A stretch of 64,000 nt of DNA from a virus (lineage: Duplodnaviria; Heunggongvirae; Uroviricota; Caudoviricetes): the IMG/VR virus record IMGVR_UViG_3300027766_000002; one strand, written 5' to 3'. The notes below the pieces were generated by a model. The model saw only the letters and a program-made list of their open reading frames with translations, did no database searches and was not told the origin of the DNA. Positions within the stretch are counted from its first letter, which is position 1. Each line of letters starts with the position of its first letter. Made by a program: the position numbers and the translations under genes. Positions 1-54,197 of the stretch are shown piece after piece.

Positions 1-387
1 TCCGAAATACAGCGTCAGGCTATGCAGATGGCCGACATTATTCTTCTTCCGTTCCGCCCAAAGCGCCGTGACATTAAATCACTGCGTAACCTCGATCCGG
101 TTCTGGATAACGTGCGTAATACCAACCACAAGGTTCGAATCATTGGGGTGATGAACCAATGTCCATCCTTGCCAAACCAGGCGCAGCGTATTATCAACGC
201 CAAAGGTGTAATTGAGTCATTTGGCATCGAGCCTGTGCCGGTTAACCTTTACACCCGCAATGTTTACGACGATGCTGAAGAGTCTGGCCGCACCATCTTC
301 GAAATGGCTGGTGCTGAACGCGATCAGAAGGCGGAAACTGAAATCATCGAGCTTGTTGATTACCTGCTGAACCTGGAGAATAAATAA
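1..387 (+). CDS. parA: ParA-family partition ATPase, C-terminal portion; the ORF is open to the window start, so it is 5'-partial
   Basis: The reading frame is open from position 1. The C-terminal sequence (…VPVNLYTRNVYDDAEESGRTIFEMAG…) resembles ParA/Soj C-termini. It is followed immediately by a small putative centromere-binding gene. Confidence 0.5.
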   Translation, partial: SEIQRQAMQMADIILLPFRPKRRDIKSLRNLDPVLDNVRNTNHKVRIIGVMNQCPSLPNQAQRIINAKGVIESFGIEPVPVNLYTRNVYDDAEESGRTIFEMAGAERDQKAETEIIELVDYLLNLENK

Positions 388-776
388 TGGCGAAGGGTAT
401 GGGTGATTTGACCAAGCGTGTAACGCCACCAGCAGCTTCAGAAGCGAAGCAGCCGGAAATGCAGCCAGCAACACCATCTGCACCATTGCGCAACCCTGTG
501 AAGCCCCAGGGGCGCCCTACGCGTGGTAAGAGCAAGATTCAGTCTCGCACCATGTCGATGGAAGATGAGTACATTGAGCTGATTGATATGCTGGCCGTCA
601 TTCCTCGCTTTGACAAGTTCACACGTTCTGACGTAATCCGCGCGGCTATTTTCCAGCTATCGGAAAAAAGTCCTGCTGAAATCGAAGAGGCTATTAAGCT
701 GAACATTGAAGCGGTGAATGCAAGTGACGTTTCATTCCGCACTGAAGAGATAAAGCGGAAGTTAATGGGAAAATAA
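387..776 (+). CDS. Small partition or centromere-binding protein (ParG/ribbon-helix-helix-like, tentative)
   Basis: ATGA overlap with the parA stop. 129 aa with a basic N-terminal tail and a C-terminal segment (TRSDVIRAAIFQL) that looks like a ribbon-helix-helix motif. Confidence 0.35.
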   Translation: MAKGMGDLTKRVTPPAASEAKQPEMQPATPSAPLRNPVKPQGRPTRGKSKIQSRTMSMEDEYIELIDMLAVIPRFDKFTRSDVIRAAIFQLSEKSPAEIEEAIKLNIEAVNASDVSFRTEEIKRKLMGK

Positions 777-14859: not shown

Positions 14860-14912
14860 GTTGTTAGTGACCTTAAAATCTATATTGGCGTTATTATTAA
14901 AATGCGAGAAAT

Positions 14913-14941
14913 AAAAAAGCCCCTTTAGAGGGGCTTATTTT
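14913..14941 (-). terminator. Rho-independent terminator (minus strand)
   Basis: aagcccctttagaggggctt hairpin with a T-run on the minus strand. Confidence 0.5.
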
Positions 14942-15471
14942 GCTTTGTGTGACATTCGAACGCCAGATTGACGACGCGGCGCAATAGGTCTATTGCGTTT
15001 AAGCACTCTATTCATCGGAACCATTTGCTGGGTCTGAGCATCATAAGCATACATCTGCCCGTCTGTCGGCATAATTTGAGAACCATCAATGCTTACACCA
15101 GGTGCTACGGCAACTTTAAGAGGAGGTCTGATCGTAGCCTCGATTGAAGCTGCCGCAGGGGTTTTCGTAATTCCAACCCGCACAACTAAAGTTTCACCTA
15201 CTTGAACTCTTGTGCGTTTCTGAGCGCGAAATTTTTTTTCTACCCATTTTGCTCGACCAGCAATGACTTGTCTTTGAGTGCCGACCTGTGCATTTCCAGC
15301 CTTTTCTTGGACTAAGCTGGCAGGGACGATCTTCCCCTCATGCCGAACGTACTCGCCCGAAGCAAGTTTACGCTCAGTGATTTTAGCGGAGGTTTTCTTC
15401 AATTTACGCGTCAGCGCAGCGTAAAGTTGTTCAGCTGAAGGGTTTTCAGTAGTATTTCGTGACGATTGCAT
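14935..15471 (-). CDS. Hypothetical basic protein
   Basis: 178 aa ORF on the minus strand, within the island. Confidence 0.4.
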   Translation of the reverse strand: MQSSRNTTENPSAEQLYAALTRKLKKTSAKITERKLASGEYVRHEGKIVPASLVQEKAGNAQVGTQRQVIAGRAKWVEKKFRAQKRTRVQVGETLVVRVGITKTPAAASIEATIRPPLKVAVAPGVSIDGSQIMPTDGQMYAYDAQTQQMVPMNRVLKRNRPIAPRRQSGVRMSHKAK

Positions 15472-16000
15472 AACCCCTCCTGTGACTGCCGAGTCTATTG
15501 AATTTAGACGTCATGGGGATAGACTTGAGTCTTATATCTCGGTCTACATCAAACCCCAGAGCCGTGTCGTAAATGCCTAGAAGCTCATCTCTGGCTGCTA
15601 TCCAGAAGTAAAGCCCAGCCTTGGTTACATTGTAATGGTCATAAACTGCACAAGCAACCCCGGTCACCAAATCCTTCTTAGCGCGAAAATCAATCTGGAC
15701 ATGGGCATAGTCATTTTCACCATCAGCAAGGTCAAATGCAACAATCCAAGCGCCACTTTCAGGGATGGCAAGTTGCTTGCCGCTGTATTGCGTTTCACCT
15801 AGAAAACTTTCCAGTACAGATTGCTTGTCAATTTTAGTGAACCCAACTGTATATCTGTGGCCCGTACTTAGCCTGCCCGCGAAAAATTCTCTGGCTACAG
15901 CAATTTGAGGCTCTTCTACATCACCAAACAAATAAGGATCAAGATCGTCCGGTTCAGGGACTTCCGTTTCATCCTCAAAATCATGCCACTCCCACTGCAC
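15446..16000 (-). CDS. Hypothetical acidic protein
   Basis: 184 aa ORF on the minus strand. Confidence 0.4.
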   Translation of the reverse strand: MQWEWHDFEDETEVPEPDDLDPYLFGDVEEPQIAVAREFFAGRLSTGHRYTVGFTKIDKQSVLESFLGETQYSGKQLAIPESGAWIVAFDLADGENDYAHVQIDFRAKKDLVTGVACAVYDHYNVTKAGLYFWIAARDELLGIYDTALGFDVDRDIRLKSIPMTSKFNRLGSHRRGYAIVTKYY

Positions 16001-16123
16001 AATTTACCTCGATTTCCTGAAATAATTCTTATTATTTAATCAAATCTTCTTTTTATACGCAATTCTTTCTAAAGGCGTACTCATCTTGGCAAAGGGGCAC
16101 AAATTTCAAAAAATGAAGCCTAA

Positions 16124-16156
16124 ATGATTCCATACTATGTAAGTATGGAATCATTG
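16124..16156. promoter_or_regulatory. Candidate recombinase core site: 13-14 bp perfect inverted repeats around a 5-7 bp spacer
   Basis: aatgattccatact atgta agtatggaatcatt lies immediately upstream of the tyrosine recombinase gene. Confidence 0.4.
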
Positions 16157-16169
16157 ATAAATCAGAGCT

Positions 16170-17330
16170 ATGCTGACCCTAAAAAAAGAGGTTTCGCATA
16201 TGCGTAGTGAATTTGATTTGGCCAAGGCAGCAGAAAACTGTTCCGCAGAGACGATCGCGTTTCTGCAGACCGTTATCGACTCGCCGCTTGATCAGCTGGA
16301 AGATTTCAGTGATTCCGACCCGGTTTTCAGAAAAGCATTCATGCTTTTCACCCGGCTATCTTTGCTGGTGACTCGCCGCCGTCCCGAGCTTGGCGTCCAC
16401 TGCATTTTGATACACGTTCTGCCTAAAATTGGCGATCTCCCTCTGTCAAAAATCACCAAGGTGGTCATTAACCGGCTGACAAACCCGCTGATCGTGGAAG
16501 GTAAAATTGTTCAGGGTAAACGTGTCTTTTCCGTAATGAAGCAGTTCCTCGCTTGGTGTGTGTTCCAGGGTTATCTAGAGAACTCACCAGTTGGCGACAT
16601 TCCACTGAACAAAGTTGGTGGCTCAAACCCTAAGCCCAGGGAGCGCACGCTAACAGACGCTGAAATATGGGTGTTCTGGCATGTATGGGATTACTTCGAA
16701 GTTTGCGAGGTGACGCGCTGGGCTGCCAGATTGACGCTTGCTGCTGCTCGACGCCCTGACGAGATCCTACGTGCAAAATCCGCTGAGTTTGACCTCACCA
16801 ATAACATATGGAACCAGGGTCGTCGTAACAAGTCGAATCGAGACCACCGGTTGCCCATCAGCCCGATTATGAAGCTCTGTATCGAACGGCTGCTTGCCGC
16901 GGGTGAGGGTAGCGAATGGCTATGCCCATCTAACAAGAAAGCAGGGCGGCCGATGTCAAAGGTGGCCATCAGCCAATCTTTGCGCCGAATCCTCGAAACA
17001 CCAGAAATGCTGGCGGTTGAGCCGTTCACTCCACGTGATCTACGCAGGACTGCAAGGAGCTGTCTGGCAAGTTTGGATGTACCGAGTGATGTATCAAGAA
17101 AGGTTTTAAATCAAAGCCTTGAAGGTATAGACCGTGTGTACGACAGGCACGACTATATAGATCAGATGCAAGAAGCACTGTGCAAATACTCAGTATTTTT
17201 GTTTAATATAGTCGAAAGCGAGGGGGTGGAGGATTTGAGCCACAAATACAAAGGCGACCGTCTGGATCTATCAAACAGTCGCCTTGGACTTGGGGTCGTT
17301 AACTTTGGATCGCAGCAAGTATATCCTTGA
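16170..17330 (+). CDS. Tyrosine recombinase / integrase-family protein (the start may be the internal ATG near 16199)
   Basis: C-terminal catalytic region with ARRPDE…FTPRDLRRTARS…RVYDRHDY (R-[H/R]xxR-Y). Confidence 0.6.
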   Translation: MLTLKKEVSHMRSEFDLAKAAENCSAETIAFLQTVIDSPLDQLEDFSDSDPVFRKAFMLFTRLSLLVTRRRPELGVHCILIHVLPKIGDLPLSKITKVVINRLTNPLIVEGKIVQGKRVFSVMKQFLAWCVFQGYLENSPVGDIPLNKVGGSNPKPRERTLTDAEIWVFWHVWDYFEVCEVTRWAARLTLAAARRPDEILRAKSAEFDLTNNIWNQGRRNKSNRDHRLPISPIMKLCIERLLAAGEGSEWLCPSNKKAGRPMSKVAISQSLRRILETPEMLAVEPFTPRDLRRTARSCLASLDVPSDVSRKVLNQSLEGIDRVYDRHDYIDQMQEALCKYSVFLFNIVESEGVEDLSHKYKGDRLDLSNSRLGLGVVNFGSQQVYP

Positions 17331-17679
17331 GCTTTTCATCTGTTAGAGTGCCGGATGATTTTGTTTTGTCTCGTAAGGCATTGATTATCTGGCGCTCTTC
17401 GTCACTTAGACCAGGGAGGTTTTTCTTTATGAATTGGTGGATGACCGGGTATCGTTCTTCCAAAACCAGCATCATGAAGCGAGTCTCATCTGTGCCTAAA
17501 GCTTCAGCAAGAAGGGATACTTTTTCCAATGGCATCGGCAGACGGCCGGTTTTAATATTGGAGAGATTGTTTGCGTTTTCATAGCCAATCTCAGATGCGA
17601 TCTGAGTCTGCGATTTTGGGGATGTCAAAATAAGCCCCTCAATAAATGCCGAAATACGGTTACCTTTTTTAGCGGCCAT
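17299..17679 (-). CDS. XRE-family helix-turn-helix transcriptional regulator (candidate repressor)
   Basis: HTH segment QTQIASEIGYENANNLSNIKTGRLPMPLEKVSLLAEALG. 126 aa. Convergent with, and overlapping, the recombinase 3' end. Confidence 0.6.
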   Translation of the reverse strand: MAAKKGNRISAFIEGLILTSPKSQTQIASEIGYENANNLSNIKTGRLPMPLEKVSLLAEALGTDETRFMMLVLEERYPVIHQFIKKNLPGLSDEERQIINALRDKTKSSGTLTDEKLKDILAAIQS

Positions 17680-18283: not shown

Positions 18284-20578
18284 ATGAAAAATAAACAAAA
18301 AATTAGAAAAGAGGTTCTGACATTTCGCGAAAGTGTACGTAAAGTCGTTGTCATGCTTTCTGGTAAAGATATTCCTGTGGCGGAGCGTGGTAGCCGTGCA
18401 TACGTCGAATATAACAAGGATGGTAAGCCATGCATGGTAAATCTTCCTTCACTGCCAGATGATGCGACTGATGGCCTCATGAACGCGATCCGTGGCTTCC
18501 TTGACCACGAAGTCGCTCACCTCCTTTTCACCGACTCGAAACTGGCATTTAAGCTGCTCGATAAGAAAGACAGCCCAGCTTTTCACCTCTGGAATGCCGT
18601 AGAAGATACCTTCATTGAACGACGTATGGGTGAAGTTTTCTCTGGATCTAAACGCAACCTTGTCAATACGCAACGTCATGTAATTGAAAAACTTTTCGTT
18701 CCGAAAGTGGATGATGCACTAAAGGCTTTATCTCGTAACCCGCGAGAACTCTTTCTTAAGTTCCTGTTAATGCCAGCTTTACGCGCCTGGGCAGGACAAA
18801 CGCCTTTTGTTGAGTTCATGGAGCCGTATTGGGCTTATGTTCGCGATCCTGTATCAAAACTAGATAAAGCTGGTGTGCCGGCTGCTGTGCCAATGTTGAT
18901 GAGCACCGAAGACTGCATCAAGCTGGCAGGCCGAATTTCACTGGCTTTAAAGGAAGAAATGGAGAAACCGGAAGGTAAATCTGGCCATGGTGATTCGGAA
19001 GAAAATGATAAGGAAAATGATTCGCCTGATGATGTAGGTAGTGAACAACCTACTAAATCAAATGATGAATCTAATAGTGATAAGCCTGGTAGTGTCGATG
19101 AGACGCAGGAGGAAGAAGAGCCTGCTCCTGTAATTAATAGTAATGAAGATAATATAAAAGATAAGGAAGACGGCTCTGAATCAGTTCCCGACTCCAGCAA
19201 CGCTAATGACTCCCAGCCTGAAGATGGTGACGCTCACGAAGATGACGCCCCAGCAAAATCAGGTGATGGTGATGATATACCAGAAGGTGAAGAAGAATCT
19301 GAGCAGTCTGAGGGGTTTGGTGGTTTCGAGAGCGACTCGGACGACAATGATCCAGATAATGAGCAGCCTGAAAGTGGTTCGGGCGGTGCAGACGATACTG
19401 GTTCAGCGGCCAACTCAGATGACCAGCAAAGCACACCAGGTGATCTAGAAAGTGATGGTCGTCAGGAAGCCACCCAGGGCGATCTAAACGAAGAAGATGG
19501 CGGTACTGATGACATTCCATTGGACGCAGCGTTTAAGGCGCTGGAAGGCACTGAGGTGGCTCCAGAGCAGGGCATGGAGGAAGCGCTCAACGAGGTAATG
19601 GCCAACGAGCTGATAGGTGTGCCAAAAGGCTCATATCGCCCATATCAACGCTCATATGACTTTATTGGCCCGATTGATGATGTCGAGAACCATCTCCGCA
19701 AAACTCATAAAGCTTTTGGCCGCATCCATCTTAACCGTGGTTTAAAGAACTGGCGTATCGACGACGAAGGCACCAGTTTATTTGCCTCGAATGTCGAGCG
19801 TCGTCTCGCTGATGGATCGGCCTCAACACTGGCCAAAGACCTTGAACGTGCCATTGCGAGTCGTAACAAAGTCCAGTTCGTACCTGGTCAACGTCGTGGA
19901 AAAGTGCATAGCGCCAATTTGTACCGACTGTCTATGAACGATGACCGCGTATTCCGTCGCAAGGAAGACCATAAGGCAGTAAACGCTTGTGTGCAGCAGG
20001 TTATCGACTTGTCTGGCTCGATGCAGGGTTCGAAAATTTGCCTTGCACTGGCCTGCGCCTACACAATTTCTGACGCGCTCGATCGCATAAATGTTCCGAA
20101 CATCATTACCGGGTTTACAACTGCAGGCTGTGACATCGATGCAGCAAGGAAGATGGGTCGCGGCTACAACCGCTATGAATCATTGATGCTCCCCACTATC
20201 AAGGGTTGGCACGAACGAGCAAACACGCCCACCACACGCAAACGCTTAGGCTGCTTGTCAGAGAGATTCCCCCTTGAAGACAACATAGATGGTGAATCAA
20301 TTATGGCTTTAGCTCAGCACTTTGCTGGCCGCATTGAGGATAAGAAAATCATGCTTGTCATGAGTGACGGTGCACCAGCTGGAATCGGTCATGACTTCAG
20401 CGACCATCTTAAAGCTGTGGCGGAGTCAATTGAAGGCAGTGGTCTTATTGAACTAATGGGTATCGGCATTCTTACGGATGCTCCCAGCCGGTTCTACAAG
20501 AACCACGTTGAAGTCAAAAAGGTGGAAGACCTGGGTGCCACTGTCGTGAGGAAATTGTCTCAATTGATACTTGGCTAA
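18284..20578 (+). CDS. cobT: vWA-domain protein with a long acidic low-complexity linker (CobT-like)
   Basis: Start at the GGAAAAGCACATG motif. The C-terminal von Willebrand A domain carries a MIDAS motif VIDLSGSMQGS. The central ~170 aa is D/E/S-rich. It pairs with the downstream AAA+ ATPase. Confidence 0.55.
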   Translation: MKNKQKIRKEVLTFRESVRKVVVMLSGKDIPVAERGSRAYVEYNKDGKPCMVNLPSLPDDATDGLMNAIRGFLDHEVAHLLFTDSKLAFKLLDKKDSPAFHLWNAVEDTFIERRMGEVFSGSKRNLVNTQRHVIEKLFVPKVDDALKALSRNPRELFLKFLLMPALRAWAGQTPFVEFMEPYWAYVRDPVSKLDKAGVPAAVPMLMSTEDCIKLAGRISLALKEEMEKPEGKSGHGDSEENDKENDSPDDVGSEQPTKSNDESNSDKPGSVDETQEEEEPAPVINSNEDNIKDKEDGSESVPDSSNANDSQPEDGDAHEDDAPAKSGDGDDIPEGEEESEQSEGFGGFESDSDDNDPDNEQPESGSGGADDTGSAANSDDQQSTPGDLESDGRQEATQGDLNEEDGGTDDIPLDAAFKALEGTEVAPEQGMEEALNEVMANELIGVPKGSYRPYQRSYDFIGPIDDVENHLRKTHKAFGRIHLNRGLKNWRIDDEGTSLFASNVERRLADGSASTLAKDLERAIASRNKVQFVPGQRRGKVHSANLYRLSMNDDRVFRRKEDHKAVNACVQQVIDLSGSMQGSKICLALACAYTISDALDRINVPNIITGFTTAGCDIDAARKMGRGYNRYESLMLPTIKGWHERANTPTTRKRLGCLSERFPLEDNIDGESIMALAQHFAGRIEDKKIMLVMSDGAPAGIGHDFSDHLKAVAESIEGSGLIELMGIGILTDAPSRFYKNHVEVKKVEDLGATVVRKLSQLILG

Positions 20579-21905: not shown

Positions 21906-22105
21906 GCAAAGGCTGCTTTGGTTCACTGATAGCAGCCTCTGAAACTAATCCCGTTTGCATGGCATGTTCCAGCAAGCGGGATTGCTTTGTTAAGGCACAA
22001 GAGACCGCTATCAAGATTTACGGGAAGTTCGCTGGCTTCCCAAACGACAAAATAAAAAAGACAAGTAAGGCAAAAGCACATGAAAGCATTAATGGTACGA
22101 ACTGA
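21902..22105 (+). CDS. Hypothetical small Cys-containing protein
   Basis: ATGA overlap with cobS. 67 aa. Confidence 0.3.
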   Translation: MSKGCFGSLIAASETNPVCMACSSKRDCFVKAQETAIKIYGKFAGFPNDKIKKTSKAKAHESINGTN

Positions 22106-24437
22106 CTTCTCCCTGGGTGAGTCGTCTTTGAAGGCAGAGCGCGCCGTAGAGAAAGCCCGCGAAATGGGTTACTCGTCGGTGATCTCCGCTGACAGCATGA
22201 ATCTGGCATCCGTAATCCCCTTGCAGATGGCGGCTGGTGACGATGTTGCGGTCATTTGTGGTGTGAAGCTTAACCTGGTTGACGATCCTACATACGAGCA
22301 CCGCGCTCGACTTGCGAAGGAGTCTAAAGGATGTATGGAATCATTAACGCGCGCGCGTAACTACAGCTTCACGGCGCTAATCAAGAACGAGCAGGGCTAT
22401 GTCGATCTCTGCGAACTGATGACGCTGGCAAACACACGCGAGCAGTTTTATCACGTTCCCCGTCTTGAGCTGGCGCAGCTGCTGGCTACGTTCGCCAAAG
22501 GCAACATCATCCTGCTGACCTCGGACATGGGAAGCGTATTCCAGCGCCCGGACTTCGCGAAGATTATCGCCCAGCTGGTTCACGCTGGCGGCCGTGAGAA
22601 CTTTTACTGCGCCGTTTATCCGATTGCTACCCCCCTCTATGACCAGCTGAATAGCAAATCGCTCAAGGTGGCCAGTGCTCTTAAGATCGAGCCGGTGGCG
22701 TTCTACCCTGCTTACTACGAGGCTCCCACTGACGCTGACATCAAAGACATCGCGCATATGGTGCTGAACAACATCAAAATAGACCAGCTGCACCGTATGC
22801 GAATCCCGTATCAACGTGACAATGGCGTTAATGATCGCCGCCACTTACTCCAGCTATTGAAGGAGTTTGCGGTGCGGATGGGTGTCAACGTCACGCCAGC
22901 AATGGTCTCAACAACTCAGGACGCGATCATTGATGCGTGTACATGGCGCTGGCACCCGCTGGAGCCCGCTTTACCAACCATGGCAGATGATGAGCCAGCC
23001 ACATTGCGTAAACTCGCTGTAGAGGGGCTGAGGAAGCGTCTTAGCACCAAAGAGTTCGGCTATGCGCCACCAGCCACAATGCACCGTGATTATGTTGAGC
23101 GTCTGAAGTACGAACTTGATGTTTTAACCCGCCTTGGCTTCTGCGGCTACTTCCTCATGGTTCACGACCTGATGAATTACGCTCGCGGCGCCGGGATTCC
23201 TGTTGGGCCTGGTCGCGGTTCATCCGCTGGCTCTCTTGTCGCCTGGTGCGTGGGGATCACAAACGTAGACCCTATTCGCCATGGATTGCTGTTCGAACGT
23301 TTCATTAACCCTGAACGTCTCGACTTGCCCGATGCTGATCTGGACTTTAGCCAGGCACGTCGCCACGAGGTCATTGAGTACCTGGGTGAGCGTTACGGGG
23401 AGGATTACGTCGCTGGCATTCCCAACTTCACATACCTCGGTGCAGCTTCAGCACTGCGCGACACCGCACGTATCTTTGGCGTGGATTCAGCGGATATGGC
23501 GGTATCGAAAGACCTGCGCTTTGTCGATGACGATTCACTGTCACTCGAAGAGATGCGCGAAGAGCTTTCCAGCCTGGACAAATACGCAGCCAAATACCCG
23601 GACGCATTTAACGCGGCCACTAAACTGCAAAGTCTCATGCGCGGATTCGGCCGCCACGCAGCAGGCATGATCGTAGCCGGTGTGAAGCTGACGGAGCGCA
23701 CACCGGTAGAGCGACGCGGGGATGCGCGTGTAATCGCTTTTGACAAGCGTTACTGCGAATCCATGGGATTGATTAAGTTGGACGTGCTCGGCCTCGCTAC
23801 GCTCGATTTGCTGGCTTATGCGCAGGAATACGTGAAAGAAGCCACGGGCAGCGTGATTGATCTCGATGCAATTCCACTAACTGACAAAAAGGTTCTTGAT
23901 GGCTTTGCCGGTGGCCACACCCAGGGCGTGTTCCAGCTTGAATCAGGTTCGATGCGTAAGCTGCTAAAGGATCTGGGCGGCGGCATTGATCCGATGAGCT
24001 TTGAAACAGTTGTCGCCACGACAGCATTATTCCGACCTGGCCCGATCGAATCTGGAATGTTGGACAGCTACGTTTCGGTGGCCAAAGGCTTCAAAGAGGC
24101 TGATTCCATCCACCAGGTGCTCGATGAGCTTACCTCTGAGACCAATGGGGTAATTCTCTATCAGGAACAAACCATGAAGGCCACGCAGCTGCTGGCCGGC
24201 TTCACGCTCGCGGAAGCTGATGGCGTCCGTAAAGCGATCGGTAAAAAAGACATGGAGAAGATGAAGAAGGTCGGTAACCAGTTTATCGAGCAAGCCCAGG
24301 CTGGCTGGATAGAGGTGAAGTTGGAAGACGGAACCAATCGCCAGTTCCACCGCGCGGAGCACTTCAAATGTGCCGATGGCAAGCTGCGAACCATCGAAGA
24401 AGCAATGCACGATGGCGCCGAAGTTCTGGGTATCTAA
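22080..24437 (+). CDS. dnaE: DNA polymerase III alpha subunit (DnaE), N-terminal about 785 aa (PHP, palm, thumb, most of the fingers)
   Basis: GFCGYFLMVHDLMNYARGAGIPVGPGRGSSAGSLVAW…LLFERFINPERLDLPDADLDF matches the E. coli DnaE catalytic core. It ends at an in-frame TAA, 24 codons before the next in-frame dnaE ORF. Confidence 0.85.
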   Translation: MKALMVRTDFSLGESSLKAERAVEKAREMGYSSVISADSMNLASVIPLQMAAGDDVAVICGVKLNLVDDPTYEHRARLAKESKGCMESLTRARNYSFTALIKNEQGYVDLCELMTLANTREQFYHVPRLELAQLLATFAKGNIILLTSDMGSVFQRPDFAKIIAQLVHAGGRENFYCAVYPIATPLYDQLNSKSLKVASALKIEPVAFYPAYYEAPTDADIKDIAHMVLNNIKIDQLHRMRIPYQRDNGVNDRRHLLQLLKEFAVRMGVNVTPAMVSTTQDAIIDACTWRWHPLEPALPTMADDEPATLRKLAVEGLRKRLSTKEFGYAPPATMHRDYVERLKYELDVLTRLGFCGYFLMVHDLMNYARGAGIPVGPGRGSSAGSLVAWCVGITNVDPIRHGLLFERFINPERLDLPDADLDFSQARRHEVIEYLGERYGEDYVAGIPNFTYLGAASALRDTARIFGVDSADMAVSKDLRFVDDDSLSLEEMREELSSLDKYAAKYPDAFNAATKLQSLMRGFGRHAAGMIVAGVKLTERTPVERRGDARVIAFDKRYCESMGLIKLDVLGLATLDLLAYAQEYVKEATGSVIDLDAIPLTDKKVLDGFAGGHTQGVFQLESGSMRKLLKDLGGGIDPMSFETVVATTALFRPGPIESGMLDSYVSVAKGFKEADSIHQVLDELTSETNGVILYQEQTMKATQLLAGFTLAEADGVRKAIGKKDMEKMKKVGNQFIEQAQAGWIEVKLEDGTNRQFHRAEHFKCADGKLRTIEEAMHDGAEVLGI

Positions 24438-24509
24438 CCGTTTAACGCAGCTTGGATGCCGTATCTGAGCTGCGAAAATTAATACATGGATTGTGATTAA
24501 GAGGCACCA

Positions 24510-25679
24510 ATGAAAGTTTTAGAGACGATTTCCACGAAGCCCGGACTAAGTGATAGCAAAGCAAAAGAGATCTGGGAAGCGTTTGAAAAAAACGGGGCGT
24601 ACCAGTTCAACAAATCTCACTCAGTGGCTTACTCGCTGATTAGCTATCAGTCGATGTTCATGAAAACGCACTACCCTGCCCAATTCTTCGCAGCAGCGCT
24701 GACTATTTTGGGTGATGACAAGCATCAGGGGCTGGTCAAGGACGCGCTGAGCTTTGGCATTCGCATCTTGCCACCAGATGTAAACATCTCAACCAACCGC
24801 ATTGAGATCCGTCAGATGGAAGATGGTACGCAAGTGCTGTATGCGCCCTTCTCAGCTGTTAAAGGATGCTCAGAGAATGGATGCCAGGCAATCATGCGCG
24901 CCCGGGCGAAAGTGGGAGGCCATTTCACAGACATCATGCAGTTTGAAGAGGCGGTTGAGAAGCGCGCCTGCAACAGCCGTGTACGTGACTCTCTCGATCG
25001 TGTCGGTGCATTTGCCAGCATCATTCCCGGCAGCGTACCAGCTACCTCAGAAGAACGACGCCGCGACCAGGCGGAGCTGATGGGTAATCTGGTGATCGAT
25101 GCGGTAAAAGCGACACGCCAGTTTGAAATGAACCCGAAACGCCAGGCTGAAGTAAACGTGCTGATGACGAATATGGCCGCTGAAATGGGGCTGGGTGATG
25201 AGCTTATCCGTCCGAGCATCGGCATCAAACCACGCTTGATGATCATCCTCGACAACGCCAACGGTAACGATGGCAAAACCGGATACTTCATGGAGAACGG
25301 TTATGACGACTTCAAGGCGAAGTTGCTGGTTGCCGGCGATCTTAAAATGGGCGATTTGTACATTACCGGCGTTTGCAAGAAGGTGAAGGACAAAGAAAAG
25401 GACTACACCAAAGACGAGTTAGGCCAGTTTAACGAGTTCATCAAAGCAGAGGTAGCTTTGGTACGACCAACGTACATTCTTACTTGCGGCGCCAAGTCCA
25501 CCAGCCTGTTTAACAACAAATCGAAGCCATCAGATCTTGTTGGCCGCAAAGAGTATCTGCCGGAGTTGGATGTCACGGTATTCTATGGCTTTAATCCCAA
25601 CATTCTCCACTTCCGCCCAGAAGAAGGCGAAAAGCTGGAGTTGATCCTCGCTGACGTTGCCGAGGCAGTAAATTCGTGA
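24510..25679 (+). CDS. dnaE: DNA polymerase III alpha subunit (DnaE), C-terminal about 389 aa, separately initiated
   Basis: …FEKNGAYQFNKSHSVAYSLISYQSMFMKTHYPAQFFAAAL matches E. coli DnaE around residue 870. It has its own AAGAGG Shine-Dalgarno 5 nt before the ATG. It is in the same frame as the upstream ORF. Confidence 0.8.
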   Translation: MKVLETISTKPGLSDSKAKEIWEAFEKNGAYQFNKSHSVAYSLISYQSMFMKTHYPAQFFAAALTILGDDKHQGLVKDALSFGIRILPPDVNISTNRIEIRQMEDGTQVLYAPFSAVKGCSENGCQAIMRARAKVGGHFTDIMQFEEAVEKRACNSRVRDSLDRVGAFASIIPGSVPATSEERRRDQAELMGNLVIDAVKATRQFEMNPKRQAEVNVLMTNMAAEMGLGDELIRPSIGIKPRLMIILDNANGNDGKTGYFMENGYDDFKAKLLVAGDLKMGDLYITGVCKKVKDKEKDYTKDELGQFNEFIKAEVALVRPTYILTCGAKSTSLFNNKSKPSDLVGRKEYLPELDVTVFYGFNPNILHFRPEEGEKLELILADVAEAVNS

Positions 25680-33457: not shown

Positions 33458-33806
33458 CATCGAAGGTATCAAATGGGTGGCTGATGGTGAGCCGAATTTC
33501 TACACGCTGCTTTCAGACAAGAACTGGTTCGGGAAACTCCAGATGAACGGAGAGATGCACACCGTCGCGCAGGAGAAGTTTTTAAATGGCCTGTTCCCAC
33601 ACTTGAAAGAAGAGGCGAGTAAGTCAGTAACGCCGCTCACACCTGTAAAAATAATCGAAATCATGATCGATTGGCTGGAGTGCAACGTGGATATGGGCAC
33701 ACCTATCATCTTTGACAATGATGATGACAACACTGATTCGGCAAAAGCCTTGCCAGCTATGTACGAAGCTCTGCGCATTCTTCGAGGTATAGGGGGGCAA
33801 TCTTGA
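33417..33806 (+). CDS. Hypothetical protein
   Basis: 129 aa ORF. Confidence 0.4.
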   Translation: MAAWPNWRTKLMSNIEGIKWVADGEPNFYTLLSDKNWFGKLQMNGEMHTVAQEKFLNGLFPHLKEEASKSVTPLTPVKIIEIMIDWLECNVDMGTPIIFDNDDDNTDSAKALPAMYEALRILRGIGGQS

Positions 33807-34923: not shown

Positions 34924-35124
34924 CGCTTTCCTTACATTTCAAAAATAGGTTACTATCTACCTATCTTATGGAGTTCGCATGACAGTAGCTTTGCAATTAA
35001 CCTCTCTCCTTCTGGTACTTTTATGCCGTCAGATGAAGAAAGCCTTCGAGCCAATGCCCGGGCGCGTTTATTACCCCTTCATGCTCAGCACCGCATTATT
35101 CATGTTCCTGTCGCCGGTGCTGAA

Positions 35125-35490
35125 ATGAAACGGATCTCGTTAATCGCATTATTGATGCTTCCCACTTTAGCCCAGGCTAACAGCCTGAAAACGTTGCAGT
35201 GTCACGCTGCCATCGTTCATTCAGTTGGAGAGCGAATCACTGGAGTTTCAGAGCGGATGACCGGTGTGCTGGTCGTTGACAGCGGTATGGAGTTTTACGC
35301 GCTGCTCGGCTCTACGATTTACAAGTCTCCCCCGCTGAAATCGCGGAAGAAGATGAAATTTGGTGTTGGCTCGGATGGCCAGACCTTTATTAAAAAGGAT
35401 GCCGTGTACAGCGTGTCTTCTCAGGACACTAGTATCATATTTGACGAGTGTTCCGAGGTTAGTAATGATTTACACCATGCAGAAAAGTGA
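35125..35490 (+). CDS. Hypothetical secreted protein (signal peptide MKRISLIALLMLPTLAQA)
   Basis: Internal start of the listed ORF 35023..35490, chosen because it gives a canonical signal peptide. Confidence 0.35.
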   Translation: MKRISLIALLMLPTLAQANSLKTLQCHAAIVHSVGERITGVSERMTGVLVVDSGMEFYALLGSTIYKSPPLKSRKKMKFGVGSDGQTFIKKDAVYSVSSQDTSIIFDECSEVSNDLHHAEK

Positions 35491-35677: not shown

Positions 35678-35711
35678 CTGGTTATCAAGAATTGACTGAG
35701 GTATGTGGCTA

Positions 35712-35952
35712 TTACATACCGCAGTCAATGGCATTTGCCGAAGTACGCAACTCTACATACCGCAGTCAAGAAATCACATATTCTGGTTGGTTCAGGGTGG
35801 TTTTCATTGACTGCGGTATGCATATTACGTATCGCAGTCAAGATGGGATGTGAGACGCATATCTCAGTGAAGATTGCATACCGCAGTCAATATCACATAC
35901 CGCAGCCAATAAACCGCATATCGCAGTCAATAAACTGCATACCTCAGTCAAT
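35712..35952. repeat. Iteron array: about 9 copies of a 14-19 bp CATACCGCAGTCAA(T) repeat, one of them inverted
   Basis: Direct repeats seen at 35714, 35754, 35808 (inverted), 35828, 35878, 35897, 35916, 35930 and 35942. They lie immediately downstream of the repA stop, since repA is on the minus strand. Confidence 0.7.
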
Positions 35953-36967
35953 TTTCGGGTTTGGATTTAGCGAGGGCTTCTGCCAGTTTGACGGGATCTA
36001 TACCTGCAGTTTTCAAAGCCTTAATGACTTCGTCGTAGTTCTCTTCTGACGGCGGCTGCTCTTCAACCTTTTGTTTAGGCAGCTTAGAAGTCTGGATCAG
36101 CTTCGGATTGCGGTAGTGAACGACGAAGAAGGTGGAGTTTCCGCGTTTGGTTTCGGTGTATTCGAGGTACCCGATTTCTTTCAGTTGCTCCATGGCCTTT
36201 CTAACAGTGTGATTTTGCGTGTAAACGCTTGAAGTCAGGTTAAGCCGGTCACGAAGGCGCTTCATCGAAATGGGAGCGTGGTTCTGGGGTAGACTTTCAA
36301 TGAAGGTGTACAGAGCCTGGGCTGATTCTTTACGTGGCAGTGCATCAATGGCTTTAAGTCGAAGCAGCACACGCCTGTCCATGTCATAGAGTTCGAAGAG
36401 CTTAGGCTCAGCTTCTATTTCAACAACGTTTTCAACGACATCGTATGAGGCTGATTTTACCAGGTGTGTCACCCACCCTTTCGTATCGTTCTGGAACTTA
36501 AGCGTTACGGATGCCAATTTAAACAGGGAGTTACTGATACGATCTCGCATCTTCTGGTTGGAACGTCGGCTATCGAACCCACACATCTTAACGAACTCGA
36601 CAAACGTGAGCTTAAGCGCACTTCCCTGCACCCCATGCTCAGCCATTGAGCGAACGATCCCCAGCCATACCTTGAAATCAGTGTCCATATCCAAACGTGA
36701 CCCTGTAATTTTCACGTCGTTGTAGCCTTCGCTCTTGGCTATGGACAACTGGACAAGTTCTTCGGTCGCATCTGTGATATTTTTACGGTTGGTCTTGCTC
36801 TTACTCGTTGATTTTAGGGTAGGAACAAACAGGCCGAGACGCATGAGAGGAACCGGCTGAACAGTGCTGGAGCTGTTAATATCCAGTGAAACGATCTCAC
36901 CTGTCGATTTGTTTGTTTCTTCCAAATTCATCGGTAAGGTTTTGGATTTCTTGACCATTTTATGCAC
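35948..36967 (-). CDS. repA: Replication initiator RepA (Rep_3/iteron-plasmid type)
   Basis: 339 aa on the minus strand, flanked on both sides by iterons. Winged-helix-like initiator sequence features. Confidence 0.55.
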   Translation of the reverse strand: MHKMVKKSKTLPMNLEETNKSTGEIVSLDINSSSTVQPVPLMRLGLFVPTLKSTSKSKTNRKNITDATEELVQLSIAKSEGYNDVKITGSRLDMDTDFKVWLGIVRSMAEHGVQGSALKLTFVEFVKMCGFDSRRSNQKMRDRISNSLFKLASVTLKFQNDTKGWVTHLVKSASYDVVENVVEIEAEPKLFELYDMDRRVLLRLKAIDALPRKESAQALYTFIESLPQNHAPISMKRLRDRLNLTSSVYTQNHTVRKAMEQLKEIGYLEYTETKRGNSTFFVVHYRNPKLIQTSKLPKQKVEEQPPSEENYDEVIKALKTAGIDPVKLAEALAKSKPEN

Positions 36968-36994
36968 CAGCAGTTGTTCACATGCCGTAAGTGT

Positions 36995-37102
36995 AACTGC
37001 ATATCTCAGTCAAGGTAAATACATACCGCAGTTAATGGATTTGCGTACCGCAGTTGGTAGGTTCACATGTCGCAGTCATGATTCTGCACACTACAGTCAA
37101 GA
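36995..37102. repeat. Second iteron array upstream of repA (about 5 degenerate copies of TACCGCAGT)
   Basis: actgcatatctcagtcaagg, acataccgcagttaatgg, gtaccgcagttgg, catgtcgcagtcatg and cactacagtcaag. Confidence 0.6.
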
Positions 37103-37300
37103 TCGATCCTGTCTCAGCCCTGTGGTGGCGTGGGTTTGCGGCGATCGGGGATCTCTTTTGGATCTCCATTGGGATCACTTTAGGATCAATTTATTGGATC
37201 GACACTGTGGAAATTGGGGATAAGCAAAACAGGCAGTTGCAGCCTAACGCCAAATTTATGCGTTACAGTCGCAAATATTTCCACCAGCAAGAGTAGACCA

Positions 37301-37945
37301 ATGGATCTTAAACGAACACGCTGGGTTCGCCGTCTCGAAGATGGCACCTATACCATTGAGCCAGACAGCAAACTTAACTCCCAGAAAGAACTATGCGACC
37401 TCTGTGGAATTGCATCAAAATGCCCAATTAACGAGGCACGGCATAAGTTCAAGGCTACAGGAGCTGACTTCCACTTAAATTCTTGTCTGCGGTATGTGCC
37501 GCTTATCGCGTTTCGTAAACCGATCATCGGATTGAATGAGCCTTACTTCAACACGCTCCGAAGCGGAGTTACCTGGGTTAGCCGTGTAGAGCCAGGCAAA
37601 ATCGTGTGTCTGGTAGACGCAGCGAACGGAGAGCGAATCAGGTTCGCAAAAGTGGATCGAGTATGTTCGGGGCCCTACGAAGAAATGCTTCGAAAACACA
37701 GCCGATTCAACCACCTTTGCATGGGTGGTGAAAGCGTCGAAAAGGTTTCTGAAGTAATCCGTAAATCCTATGGGCATTTTCTGAAGCCTGATAGTCAGCT
37801 GACGGCCATTTATCTGCGGAGCATCAGCCGTGAACATGACGTTGAATATCACACGGATCATGAACTTGAGTTAGAAGATCCTCGGGCAAAAGCACCAGTG
37901 ATAGATATGGCCTCGCTTCGCAGAAAGCACGAGAAAACGATTTGA
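37301..37945 (+). CDS. Hypothetical protein
   Basis: Internal ATG of the listed ORF 37214..37945. 214 aa. Confidence 0.4.
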   Translation: MDLKRTRWVRRLEDGTYTIEPDSKLNSQKELCDLCGIASKCPINEARHKFKATGADFHLNSCLRYVPLIAFRKPIIGLNEPYFNTLRSGVTWVSRVEPGKIVCLVDAANGERIRFAKVDRVCSGPYEEMLRKHSRFNHLCMGGESVEKVSEVIRKSYGHFLKPDSQLTAIYLRSISREHDVEYHTDHELELEDPRAKAPVIDMASLRRKHEKTI

Positions 37946-38607: not shown

Positions 38608-39693
38608 ATGACTATACCGTATGGCGTGATCTCTGATCCCCACTACCACAAATGGAATACTTTCGCGGTTTCTGACGCCAACGGGCTTAATTCCCGCCTG
38701 GCCATTCTGCTTGAATCGACAAAGGAAGCTGCGATTGCCATCAAAGAGGCTGGGGCAAAGCATCTGTTTGTTGCAGGTGATACGTTCCATGTACGCGGCA
38801 CTATAACGCCATCTGTACTGCACTACGTGACGGAAACCTACAAGTGGATCATCAATGAGCTTGGCCTTGAAGTGGTCATGCTGGCCGGCAACCACGACCT
38901 CGAAACCAACGATTCTGTCTACAGCGCTAACGCAGCTGCCTCACTGCAGTCGATCGGGGTGCATATCGTTTGTGGGCAGCAGCCGTTCAGCATTGAAGTT
39001 GGTGATGTGAATGTTCATTTCATCAGCTGGCGTAACTCCCACGCCGAGCTTTTGAGTGATATGAAGGCGTTGCGAAATCGTCTTGAGGGCGACAACCACG
39101 ACATCATCATTCATACCTCAGTCAATAAAGCGATCCCGACCATGCCCGATGTGGGCATCGATGCGCAGGAGCTGAAGGACATTGGCTTCCGCCTGGTTTT
39201 GTCTGGTCATTACCATAACCACAAAGAAGTCCTGCCCGGAGTCGTCAGTGTAGGTGCGTTAACGCACCAGAATTGGGGTGATGTTGGAACTTTGGCCGGC
39301 TACATGATCGTACAGCCAGATGGCAGTTTTACCCAGCATGAAACCTCCGCTCCAAAGTTCGTCAACCTCGAAGAGGGCGTTGATGACAGCGAAGTACGCG
39401 GCAATTACGTTCGTTTCTACGCGACTATTGAAGCCGACGAAGAAGGCGTAAAGATAAAAAACACCCTCAACTCCATGGGCGCCAAAGGCGTCGTGTGCAA
39501 CTTCGTTCGTAAATCCTCAATGATGACCGGCTCCGCCAGCACTTCTGCTACGTCAAAGATAGATAGCCTTGGAGAGTCAGTGAGCGCTTACTGTCAGATT
39601 ATGCACGACACTGACGGCGGTTTTGATGTGAAGGCATTGGGCGCGCTTTGCAGCGACATCCTGATTGAAGCGGAAACCGGAACTTCAGAATGA
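38608..39693 (+). CDS. sbcD: SbcD/Mre11-like nuclease (calcineurin-like phosphoesterase)
   Basis: Phosphoesterase motifs DPHYH, GDTFH, GNHD and GHYH. Preceded by GGAAGAACACATG. Confidence 0.75.
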   Translation: MTIPYGVISDPHYHKWNTFAVSDANGLNSRLAILLESTKEAAIAIKEAGAKHLFVAGDTFHVRGTITPSVLHYVTETYKWIINELGLEVVMLAGNHDLETNDSVYSANAAASLQSIGVHIVCGQQPFSIEVGDVNVHFISWRNSHAELLSDMKALRNRLEGDNHDIIIHTSVNKAIPTMPDVGIDAQELKDIGFRLVLSGHYHNHKEVLPGVVSVGALTHQNWGDVGTLAGYMIVQPDGSFTQHETSAPKFVNLEEGVDDSEVRGNYVRFYATIEADEEGVKIKNTLNSMGAKGVVCNFVRKSSMMTGSASTSATSKIDSLGESVSAYCQIMHDTDGGFDVKALGALCSDILIEAETGTSE

Positions 39694-39926
39694 TCACCGG
39701 CAAATACCAGTGGGCTGTAAATATCCTGAACAACGGAGGGACGGTCACACTCCATCGTTTTACATACCGCAGTGAACGAGTGCGCTACAAGCTCAACCGT
39801 CTTTATCGTGACGGAGTCTTAGATCGCGCTTTGTACAAAACTCACCTGGAGTTTCGTCTCAAGAAAGATCAGCCAAAGCTGACTAACCTGGCATCCAAAA
39901 TAAAACATACAGAGAAAAGCACATGA
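39690..39926 (+). CDS. Hypothetical protein
   Basis: ATGA overlaps on both sides. Contains an isolated iteron copy (39760-39776). Confidence 0.4.
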   Translation: MITGKYQWAVNILNNGGTVTLHRFTYRSERVRYKLNRLYRDGVLDRALYKTHLEFRLKKDQPKLTNLASKIKHTEKST

Positions 39927-53582: not shown

Positions 53583-54197
53583 ATGATTGCCGCAGAGAAG
53601 ATTAAAAAGCGCGAGCGTGACAAAGAGCTGCGCGACCTGTGGCGCACTCCGCGATGGCTATTTGAGGCCATTCAGAAATACCTTGGCATCCAGTTTGACG
53701 TTGACGTGGCTTGTGATGCCGGCAATGCCCTACTGCCTAACTTTATCGGCAAGGAAAGAGACGCGCTTGTTTGTGATTGGGGTGAACCTGGCACAAATGC
53801 TTTTCTCAATCCGCCGTATTCCAAGATTAGACCCTGGATAGAGGCAGCTATGCGTGAGCAGCGTCGCGGCGTATCGACAGTAATGTTGATCCCCCAATCA
53901 CTTGATACCGCCTGGTATGAGTTCGCCACAGAATCAGCTAATGAGACGGTGGTGCTGACCGGTGGGCGTGTAGCCTTTCTGGAACCAGGCGTGGAGCTGG
54001 GGATGGTAGAAGTACGTGAAAACCCTGGTGGGAGTATGCTGGTGGTCTTCCGCGGCCACTGCCACCAGGCTGGGCACATTCTTCGCAAGGTTTCACTGCC
54101 AGTAATGAAAGAGCTGGGTGGTTATGATCCTTCAAAAGCAATCAGAAAGAAGCGCCCCTCCAAGAAGAAACAACCCACGTTGGAGGTGGCAGCTTAG
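53583..54197 (+). CDS. dam: Phage Dam-type DNA N6-adenine methyltransferase
   Basis: WRTPRWLFEAI…DVACD…NPPYS motifs typical of the small phage N6-adenine MTase family. Confidence 0.65.
   Translation: MIAAEKIKKRERDKELRDLWRTPRWLFEAIQKYLGIQFDVDVACDAGNALLPNFIGKERDALVCDWGEPGTNAFLNPPYSKIRPWIEAAMREQRRGVSTVMLIPQSLDTAWYEFATESANETVVLTGGRVAFLEPGVELGMVEVRENPGGSMLVVFRGHCHQAGHILRKVSLPVMKELGGYDPSKAIRKKRPSKKKQPTLEVAA

Follow-up and report, generated by a model that had tools for sequence, protein, structure and literature searches.

Immediately upstream of repA, the plasmid replicon of phage P1 has five incC iterons about 21 bp apart and, beyond them, a GC-rich spacer, a GATC cluster and tandem DnaA boxes. 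A further nine copies in mixed orientation make up incA downstream of the gene, the ninth of which adjoins the repA end, and the parAB operon comes directly after incA. Experiments on FIB replicons demonstrated that the upstream iterons belong to the origin and that the downstream block is sufficient by itself to displace a resident plasmid, in line with handcuffing (PMC11983097). In RK2, deletion of the region containing the solitary iteron 10 raises the copy number 1.5-2-fold (PMC11983097). In a survey of phage-plasmids, 130 of the 193 with a typable replicon were IncFIB, chiefly members of the SSU5 supercommunity (PMC7969092).

The DNA analysed here, referred to as the window, is a 64,000-nucleotide stretch of the IMG/VR virus record IMGVR_UViG_3300027766_000002. 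Comparison with the systems above suggests that positions 35692-37223 are very probably the plasmid-maintenance replicon of an SSU5-like phage-plasmid, of the P1 oriR/incA or RepFIB type (Table 1). This low-copy kind of replicon (phage P1/IncFIB type) is already known and well understood and, as judged from the sequence, the sole unusual feature of the present example is a small number of extra, strictly conserved sites in the neighbouring genes that resemble initiator-binding sites. As in P1, itself a phage-plasmid, five iterons precede repA, here at intervals of 21-22 bp, and a GC-rich spacer, a GATC cluster and tandem DnaA boxes follow in the same order. The GATC/DnaA-box segment is ~70% identical in DNA to P1 oriR, in which five Dam sites are annotated, and positions 37206-37223 align with the annotated 18-bp DnaA site of P1. 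Downstream of repA, ten copies are present against the nine of incA, both arrays mix orientations, and the final copy here extends over the stop codon of repA. However, the P1 iterons (GATGTGTGCTGGAGGGAAA) and those of the window (CATACCGCAGTCAA core) are unrelated in sequence, the RepA protein has ~40 more C-terminal residues than P1 RepA, and the partition genes, with a small (221-aa) ParA/MipZ-like ATPase, are located ~35 kb away from the array. Iterons within the neighbouring genes are not annotated in P1. A sequence-only reading of the window had placed a plasmid-type replicon at 35700-37110. The replicon is present, but this extent is too short, given that the GATC cluster and DnaA-box-like sites reach to 37223. 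The P1 oriR/incA (RepFIB) architecture had not been identified specifically in that reading.

Table 1 Positions of the replicon, of isolated iteron-like sites and of further genes in the window
Feature	Position	Strand	Description
Partition genes	1..776	+	3' part of a ParA/MipZ-like ATPase gene (1-387) and a 129-aa partner gene (387-776)
Isolated iteron-like site	35276..35289	-	1 mismatch, PWM 14.9 bits; in ORF 35023-35490, ~0.4 kb past the control array
Downstream control array (equivalent to P1 incA/RepFIB E-K repeats)	35692..35951	+	10 iterons, 22-30 bits
Head-to-head iteron pair, 9-bp spacer	35692..35728		second such pair; both inverted copies pair with a neighbour
Head-to-head iteron pair, 7-bp spacer	35807..35841	.	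TTGACTGCGGTATG-catatta-CGTATCGCAGTCAA, read from the sequence
repA, Rep_3-family initiator	35948..36958	-	336 aa from the ATG at 36958; Pfam, phrog_775, P1 homology
Extra DnaA-box-like 9-mer	36974..36982	+	TTGTTCACA, separating the repA start from the origin iterons
Origin iterons (equivalent to P1 incC)	37000..37100	+	five copies: 37000, 37022, 37044, 37066, 37087
GATC (Dam-site) cluster	37101..37200	.	8 GATC in 100 bp, densest in the 64-kb window
Two tandem DnaA-box-like 9-mers	37206..37223	-	ATTTCCACA, TTATCCCCA; 1 mismatch each to TTWTNCACA
Isolated iteron-like site	37483..37496	-	1 mismatch, 18.9 bits; in ORF 37301-37945, ~0.26 kb past the DnaA boxes
Isolated iteron-like site	39112..39125	+	1 mismatch, 22.7 bits; in the SbcD-like metallophosphoesterase gene, codons HTSVN
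Isolated iteron-like site	39763..39776	+	1 mismatch, 20.5 bits; in small ORF 39690-39926
Dam-type N6-adenine methyltransferase gene	53583..54197	+	Pfam Dam (PF05869), 4.1e-36

The minus-strand ORF between the two arrays (35948-36967) offers an alternative in-frame GTG at 36967, but the likely start of repA is the ATG at 36958, because it is the annotated start in the plasmid of Cronobacter sp. JZ38, one of the closest relatives, and corresponds in alignment to the ATG annotated in IncFIB(K) plasmids. A Rep_3-like repA had been proposed in the sequence-only reading, along with an HMM search against Rep_3 (PF01051) as a check. This search, carried out with PF01051 and PF21205, matched both domains above their curated cut-offs: Rep3_N (41.8 bits against a cut-off of 22.4, E = 1.7e-10) at residues 117-223, the N-terminal winged helix (WH1), and Rep3_C (24.6 bits against 21.1, E = 3e-5) at residues 234-285, the C-terminal winged helix (WH2). 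RepA also matched phrog_775 (2.4e-127) and shares 51% identity (E = 7e-95) with the experimentally characterised P1 RepA across P1 residues 21-286, nearly the full P1 protein. The identity is 57% to SSU5 RepA, and 97.9% to the RepA of the JZ38 plasmid and of that from Enterobacter sp. CP102. An NCBIfam search with RepA gave no meaningful match, PDB sequence and profile searches with the protein found nothing, and a single-sequence AlphaFold2 model (mean pLDDT of 40.7) was too poor for use against the WH1-WH2 fold of RepE, pi and pPS10 RepA; the family was settled by the Pfam matches and the P1 homology.

The motif CATACCGCAGTCAA occurs 17 times in the window with up to two mismatches, compared to 0.32 expected from shuffles. 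Fifteen iteron copies directly adjoin the gene in two arrays, one on either side of repA, in agreement with the sequence-only reading, and the upstream set of about five that it reported is exactly five. These upstream copies are strictly phased; the last three (37044, 37066 and 37087) are degenerate, and the five score 17.7-26.0 bits with a PWM trained on the array iterons only. On the downstream side about nine copies had been counted, and we found ten, namely nine with at most two mismatches (35692(-), 35715, 35756, 35807(-), 35828, 35877, 35896, 35917 and 35938) and one with three, at 35858. Eight of them are oriented as the origin iterons. A single inverted copy (given as 35808) had been recognised before; there are in fact two, at 35692 and 35807. 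By analogy with other Rep_3 systems, the head-to-head pairs that these form may bind RepA dimers.

Small ParA systems use arrays of short repeats as centromeres, and the partner protein encoded at 387-776 is without an assigned DNA target. Rather than serving mainly in replication control, the arrays could accordingly act as centromere-like sites of the distant ParA-like system or as the operators of a phage regulator. We regard this as extremely improbable given that the same repeat also makes up the five phased copies alongside the GATC cluster and the DnaA boxes, precisely the location of the origin iterons in P1 and IncFIB. Moreover, the repeat changes with the RepA type, three iteron types being found for three RepA groups in phage-plasmids, and IncFIB(K) plasmids carry the same repeat together with the unrelated SopAB partition system. 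No copy of the motif was found near the par genes.

Six of the GATC sites beyond the origin iterons are spaced at roughly 11 bp (37143-37197), and none of the GATC positions varies when the origin is aligned with those of IncFIB(K) plasmids. This cluster is presumed to be the region of origin opening and methylation control. At the position aligned to the extra DnaA-box-like 9-mer TTGTTCACA, IncFIB(K) plasmids have a perfect TTATCCACA. The Dam-type methyltransferase encoded by the element is possibly relevant to this GATC-rich origin.

The systems used for comparison included the IncFIB(K)-type K. pneumoniae plasmid pM63-1 and the RepFIB replicons of P307, F and pO157. The CATACCGCAGTCAA core is present in the arrays of pM63-1, pBckp206-2 and 16 further genomes, and the PWM derived from the window arrays recovers the IncFIB(K) arrays. 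The origin can be aligned from end to end with those of IncFIB(K) plasmids (mean column identity of 77%), with the upstream iterons in register, and the RepA of IncFIB(K) has the same length as that encoded here. The head-to-head pair with the 7-bp spacer is also found in pM63-1 (4062-4096 of locus L008), and the IncFIB(K) downstream array displays the same mixture of orientations and the same stop-proximal copy, although it contains 5-7 copies (16-bit PWM threshold) compared to 10 here. Three further differences were observed. The RepA of the window forms a branch separate from IncFIB(K) RepA. The IncFIB(K) replicon is paired with sopAB, whereas the cassette of the window is wedged in among genes of the phage backbone. 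Finally, the distal iterons of IncFIB(K) plasmids are intergenic, with three or four located 0.36-0.6 kb upstream of repA and, in many of these plasmids, a solitary iteron 0.5-0.8 kb downstream, whereas those of the window are in coding sequence.

SSU5 carries its RepA cassette in the identical slot, between the SSU5_068 and SSU5_070 orthologues and upstream of the SbcD-like and SbcC-like genes. The SSU5-like RepA proteins of phage-plasmids are homologous to that of the window, and iteron arrays flank their genes on both sides as here. However, these iterons are of the ATCCACTGTAGTGAG or the ACCGCTGACAGCATA type and, in SSU5, the origin module is duplicated, with at least 20 array iterons. The cassette of the window shares the slot of SSU5 but has a different iteron specificity. 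In sequence, its RepA and iterons fit IncFIB(K)-type conjugative plasmids (78-80% RepA identity) better than other phage-plasmids (49-58%). This shows that phage-plasmids and conjugative plasmids of the IncFIB(K) type can exchange the replicon cassette, which matters for the prediction of incompatibility and for the design of curing cassettes.

The closest relatives of the element are two ~109-kb plasmids, from Cronobacter sp. JZ38 and Enterobacter sp. CP102, and five IMG/VR contigs. Both plasmids, of which that of JZ38 is near-identical to the element, are circular and contain terminase, capsid and tail genes. Synteny with SSU5 is evident from the gene order and from amino-acid identities of 72-78% (the product of ORF 37301-37945, the SbcD-like protein and NrdA). 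The element thus combines the SSU5-like backbone synteny, phage structural genes, and a RepA with a ParA-like ATPase that characterise SSU5-like phage-plasmids. The low-copy plasmid, or prophage-plasmid, lifestyle suggested in the sequence-only reading is borne out by this synteny and by the circular relatives with phage structural genes. The identity of RepA to its JZ38 and CP102 counterparts exceeds the DNA identity of the wider region (93-95%), which, like the circular relatives and the prevalence of IncFIB among typed phage-plasmids, speaks for a replicon in use. A megablast of the replicon against phage records gave no match, and the relatives came from protein-level searches only. Searching genome contigs with the protein of ORF 37301-37945 yielded no relatives of intermediate divergence, and a RepA search of genome contigs returned only plasmids at or below 80% identity, leaving the range of 80%-97% empty. 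While plasmids at 79% RepA identity are typed as IncFIB, the JZ38 and CP102 plasmids have no replicon type in the MOB-suite typing given by PLSDB. The main value of the present assignment lies in annotation, as it provides a plasmid-mode origin, an initiator and a control array for this poorly typed SSU5-like branch.

Genes for partition, lytic replication and integration are also encoded. Positions 1-384 specify the C-terminal 128 aa of a 221-aa ATPase, the gene of which is cut by the window start. The 221-aa protein of JZ38 matches AAA_31, MipZ and CbiA, and its C-terminus shares 95% identity with this fragment; the 129-aa partner is 93% identical to the JZ38 neighbour. Of the parA/parG-like pair proposed for the window start, the ParA-like ATPase was confirmed, whereas the ParG label gained no backing from a Pfam search with the partner, which gave no match. 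The lytic replication genes recognised in the same reading are present, encoding a DnaB-like helicase, a primase and DnaE, and a tyrosine recombinase (phage-type integrase) is located at 16170-17330.

A mechanism can be carried over as a whole, by homology, from P1 and FIB/RepFIB replicons. RepA monomers would bind the five upstream iterons and, jointly with host DnaA bound to the DnaA boxes on the flank, would bring about opening of the GATC-rich segment and loading of the host replisome. Through the iterons adjoining the repA start, RepA would limit its own expression. No sigma-70-like repA promoter was found by a consensus scan of the iteron region or by eye, and hence this autoregulation is assumed rather than located. 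The ten downstream iterons, lying outside the origin, would titrate RepA and pair with the origin iterons via RepA (handcuffing), and titration and handcuffing would together result in low copy number and incompatibility.

Alternatively, the RepA cassette could be a remnant that is inactive or active only under certain conditions, like the FIB of F, with the prophage maintained by other means such as DnaE, helicase and primase or integration via the tyrosine recombinase. The FIB replicon of F looks intact yet is partly defective (PMC11983097), so that an intact appearance is no proof of activity. The element does encode a complete set of replication enzymes as well as an integrase of the phage type, and repA has neither a clear promoter nor, on inspection, a strong ribosome-binding site. 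Nevertheless, a remnant is quite unlikely. The repA ORF is intact and 97.9-100% conserved across the seven relatives, and active plasmid families share the core of the origin, the GATC sites and the register of the iterons. The assemblies of the closest relatives gave circular plasmids of their own, the element has a gene for a partition ATPase, and no plasmid-type initiator other than RepA was seen in this slot throughout the SSU5 group.

In R6K, looping takes place between the gamma-origin iterons and distant single sites. These sites and the solitary iteron of RK2 lie outside the main arrays and affect replication control, and sites in a comparable position were found here. Four isolated copies with at most one mismatch (35276, 37483, 39112 and 39763) are present in the genes around the replicon, compared to 0.03 expected per 64 kb. 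The sequence-only reading had noted one isolated iteron, at 39760-39776; this copy is real (plus strand, 39763-39776, one mismatch) but is one of four rather than the only one. Four of the six outlying sites scored at least 18.9 bits with the PWM, whereas the maximum across 40 simulated windows was 17.7 bits. Unlike the RK2 and R6K sites, which are in non-coding DNA and belong to unrelated initiators (TrfA and pi), the candidate sites here are in coding DNA.

It is an almost even proposition that these four conserved copies are extra RepA sites that add titration or handcuffing capacity, a second-level deduction that builds on the replicon assignment. Alternatively, the replicon is real but the isolated copies are functionless, being chance matches favoured by protein motifs and kept only for the peptides that they encode. 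This is a serious contender, somewhat short of an even chance. Two of the sites are located in conserved motifs, HTS(V/I)NKA of the SbcD-like protein and NSC(L/I)RYVP of the ORF 37301-37945 product, and the codons of site 39112 have only three mismatches in the orthologues of SSU5 (11 of 14 positions matching) and E. hormaechei. The flanking genes of SSU5 and of 18 representative loci with other iteron types contain no convincing copy of their own iteron, compared to the four in the window, suggesting that such sites are not required by this class of elements generally. Two of the six outlying copies, those with two mismatches at 33803 and 44202, vary among the clade members.

Several observations argue against functionless copies. 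In addition to the excess over expectation, none of the four sites is more than 2.8 kb away from the replicon, and no such copy occurs in the remaining 60 kb of the JZ38 plasmid. Among the eight clade members, none of the 56 nt of the four sites is a variable column, compared to 17% of the columns in the coding flanks (joint P about 3.5e-4), and the synonymous positions within the sites are likewise invariant; site 39112 sits within a clade-invariant run of 25 nt. The SSU5 orthologue of site 37483 differs at six of the 14 positions, mostly synonymously, with the changes in the window being toward the iteron. Site 39763 is missing in the orthologues of SSU5 and E. hormaechei, and the orthologous codons of relatives using other iterons are without the isolated sites. 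The possible role in handcuffing or copy-number control that the sequence-only reading had suggested for its isolated copy gains support from the site statistics and the conservation, and iteron 10 of RK2 provides a precedent.

Three candidate interpretations were discarded. Dispersed iterons as a family-wide feature were rejected in favour of a clade-specific one, since neither SSU5 nor the 18 representative IMG/VR loci with other iteron types have copies of their own iteron at the orthologous positions. The copies at 33803 and 44202 were dropped as further dispersed sites because of their variation in the clade and because ~0.5 such matches are expected by chance. The TTGACT within the iterons was considered as a source of dispersed promoters, which was dropped after inspection of site 37483, as no well-spaced -10 element follows it.

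On this view, sites 35276 and 37483, the two nearest to the replicon, would correspond to the distal intergenic iterons of IncFIB(K) plasmids, apparently re-created inside coding sequence. We tentatively propose, at somewhat less than even confidence, that after uptake of an IncFIB(K)-like cassette, selection created RepA sites within ORF 35023-35490, ORF 37301-37945, the SbcD-like nuclease gene and the small ORF, mostly through synonymous or conservative codon changes, and that these sites extend the handcuffing and titration network and replace the distal intergenic iterons. If bound by RepA, the in-gene copies would represent a clear case of replication-control sites evolving in coding sequence where intergenic space is short. 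RepA occupancy of these sites might also affect how the adjacent lytic-phase nuclease genes are expressed or replicated.

The minus-strand ORF at 35948-36967 encodes an initiator in which both Rep_3 halves exceeded the curated Pfam cut-offs (Rep3_N, 41.8 bits against 22.4; Rep3_C, 24.6 against 21.1), bearing out the Rep-family membership proposed from sequence alone, and which matched PHROG 775 (2.4e-127). RepA shares 97.9% identity with the 'RepB family' initiators of the plasmids of Cronobacter sp. JZ38 (109 kb) and Enterobacter sp. CP102 (110 kb), ~79% with initiators from thousands of IncFIB-typed Klebsiella/Enterobacter plasmids, 57% with SSU5 RepA and 51% with the RepA of phage P1 (286 aa; P1 residues 21-286). 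The ATG at 36958 is the probable start of repA, giving a product of 336 aa; JZ38 has the same annotated start, and the annotated ATG in IncFIB(K) plasmids lies at the aligned position.

A search of the 64-kb window with CATACCGCAGTCAA, allowing up to two mismatches, returned 17 matches compared with 0.32 from shuffles, and none of the 100 control shuffles reached 17. The conserved iteron unit is ~16-17 bp (R-CATACCGCAGTCAA-K). The upstream count of about five in the sequence-only reading stands, the three of the five copies most distant from repA (37044, 37066 and 37087) being degenerate, but the downstream array holds ten copies rather than about nine, and two of them are inverted rather than one, each head-to-head with its neighbour (35692/35715 and 35807/35828).

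Features of the replicon, isolated iteron-like copies and split polymerase gene (origin parts ordered outward from the repA start)
Feature	Position (strand)	Remark
Downstream iterons, ≤2 mismatches (n = 9)	35692(-), 35715, 35756, 35807(-), 35828, 35877, 35896, 35917, 35938
Downstream iteron, 3 mismatches	35858	
DnaA-box-like 9-mer	36974-36982	nearest repA start
Five phased iterons	37000-37100	beyond the 9-mer; copies at 37000, 37022, 37044, 37066, 37087; strict 21-22 bp register
GC-rich spacer		between the five iterons and the GATC cluster
Eight GATC sites	37101-37200	densest GATC cluster of the window (window mean 4.9 per kb)
Two tandem DnaA-box-like 9-mers	37206-37223	one mismatch each
Isolated copy, ≤1 mismatch	35276(-)	PWM 14.9 bits
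Isolated copy, ≤1 mismatch	37483(-)	PWM 18.9 bits
Isolated copy, ≤1 mismatch	39112(+)	PWM 22.7 bits
Isolated copy, ≤1 mismatch	39763(+)	PWM 20.5 bits
DnaE cistron 1	22080-24437	PHP, pol III alpha and finger domains
DnaE cistron 2	24510-25679	HHH_6

The upstream region has the same order and spacing as the annotated plasmid origin of P1, oriR (incC iterons 10-14, five Dam sites and an 18-bp DnaA site). The segment of GATC sites and DnaA boxes is ~70% identical to P1 oriR at the DNA level, whereas the iteron sequence is unrelated to that of P1. IncFIB(K) origins align with the entire window origin at 77% mean column identity; the GATC sites do not vary and the iterons keep their register. The downstream array resembles P1 incA: both contain copies in mixed orientations, and the repA stop codon is overlapped by the final copy here and by incA copy 9 in P1; IncFIB(K) plasmids show the same downstream pattern, including a head-to-head pair with a 7-bp spacer.

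By homology to the characterised replicons, the five upstream iterons would bind RepA monomers, which with DnaA would open the GATC-rich region, and the downstream array would serve as a control element, titrating RepA and pairing with the origin via RepA (handcuffing). These roles of the two arrays are supported by experiments on FIB replicons, which assigned the upstream repeats to the origin and showed that the downstream block by itself displaces a resident FIB plasmid (PMC11983097). The repA promoter was not located. Judged on family, architecture and homology, the segment is very likely a functional P1/RepFIB-type replicon, and the plasmid replicon that the sequence-only reading placed at 35700-37110 is upheld. 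It is a new and somewhat divergent member of the P1/RepFIB replicon family, a known kind of system, and IncFIB-type replicons had already been recognised in this phage-plasmid group; the conserved iteron copies inside genes are a modest addition.

In SSU5, the origin module upstream of repA is tandemly duplicated (19301-19520 and 19676-19920), each module having a DnaA box (TTATTCACA or TTATACACA), a GATC cluster and ~5 iterons, with ~15 iterons in both orientations downstream of repA. A Dam-family N6-adenine methyltransferase gene lies at 53583-54197 (PF05869, 4e-36) and is shared with SSU5 and JZ38; with it, the element might control methylation of its own GATC-rich plasmid origin.

The 64-kb window is part of an SSU5-like phage-plasmid. 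The genes flanking the cassette are arranged as in SSU5 (SSU5_068 orthologue, repA, SSU5_070 orthologue, SbcD-like and SbcC-like genes, nrdAB), and backbone proteins are 72-78% identical to those of SSU5 (49% for the small SSU5_068 orthologue). The closest relatives are circular plasmids at 93-95% DNA identity bearing terminase, capsid, tape-measure and tail genes, and the same clade includes five IMG/VR contigs. In one survey, IncFIB accounted for 130 of 193 replicon-typable phage-plasmids, mostly of the SSU5 supercommunity (PMC7969092). Positions 1-384 encode the C-terminal 128 residues of a ParA/MipZ-like ATPase 221 aa long, 95% identical to a JZ38 protein matching AAA_31, MipZ and CbiA, so the parA-like gene recognised earlier was correctly named. 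The 129-aa partner encoded next had no match in Pfam and is plausibly a putative ParG-like protein. The proposed lytic replication genes were likewise all found (DnaB-like helicase, primase and DnaE, together with a ligase).

Among 80 IMG/VR loci sharing the SbcD-like backbone gene, CATACCGCAGTCAA iterons were confined to the window's own clade; other RepA groups, at 49-58% identity to the window RepA, had iteron types ACCGCTGACAGCATA and AACCACTGTAGWGAG. The window RepA and iterons are nearer to those of sopAB-carrying conjugative IncFIB(K) plasmids (78-80%) than to those of other phage-plasmids, and no RepA relatives of 80-97% identity were found. This affinity, the variation of iteron type with RepA group and the missing intermediates fit the view that plasmids and phage-plasmids have exchanged replicon cassettes at a conserved slot. 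Apparent 1-2 kb insertions split the downstream array from repA in two relatives, L072 (IMGVR_UViG_2775507056_000002, 440-772) and L101, and the distal upstream iteron group from repA in a third, L118; these are natural cases of candidate control iterons acting at a distance.

The one isolated iteron reported earlier, at 39763, is real, but four such copies exist, against 0.03 expected per 64 kb. Scored with a PWM trained on array copies only, 40 simulated windows reached at most 17.7 bits and had 0.125 matches of ≥16 bits per window. All four lie ≤2.8 kb from the replicon, within coding sequence and using conserved motifs; the remaining 60 kb of the JZ38 plasmid gave zero iteron matches. In the orthologous codons of SSU5 and an E. 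hormaechei plasmid, 3-6 of 14 positions differ at 39112 and 37483, largely synonymously, and the 39763 site has no similarity. Across the eight clade members, where 18% of aligned columns vary, the four sites had 0 of 56 variable nucleotide columns compared with 41 of 240 in the ±30-nt flanks (joint probability of four invariant sites ~3.5e-4, from each gene's fraction of invariant 14-mers). The sites are probably under DNA-level selection and plausibly represent auxiliary candidate RepA sites; that they are functional ones is a tentative proposal, though a realistic one. Two-mismatch copies at 33803 and 44202 vary within the clade and were set aside as probable chance matches.

In phage-plasmids with other iteron types, SSU5 and 18 representative loci, the resident iteron was not dispersed in this way, and such copies are not a general feature of phage-plasmids. 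IncFIB(K) plasmids with the same iteron have intergenic distal iterons: regularly a group at 0.36-0.6 kb upstream of repA, and often also a single copy on its downstream side, at 0.5-0.8 kb. Sites 37483 and 35276, at 0.53 kb upstream and 0.66 kb downstream respectively, match these distances but are in genes. Two IncFIB(K) plasmids, L008 (pM63-1; 4549) and L010 (11550), have exactly the 37483 variant, CATACCGCAGACAA, as their solitary distal iteron. In RK2, loss of a region with the solitary 'iteron 10' raised copy number 1.5-2-fold (PMC11983097).

The DnaE-type polymerase is split over two cistrons (22080-25679) lying 72 nt apart, with an AAGAGG Shine-Dalgarno before the second ATG, unlike the single 1172-aa ORF of SSU5. 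The JZ38 and CP102 plasmids have the same split, with products of 785 aa and of 389 or 397 aa; their PLSDB gene tables show no CDS at this locus. ARAGORN found no tRNA genes in 1-64000; SSU5 has a tRNA-Asn close to CobT/CobS-like ('porphyrin biosynthesis') genes. The region at 13810-17679 differs among the window, JZ38 and CP102; it includes a tyrosine integrase at 16170-17330 (Phage_integrase, 6.8e-8) and is annotated in JZ38 with a HEPN/Toprim-associated-domain protein, a tyrosine integrase and an XRE regulator. The variable genes, including one for an adenylate/guanylate cyclase that is present in CP102 but not in JZ38 at another variable spot downstream of the DnaE genes, may be cargo or defence genes.
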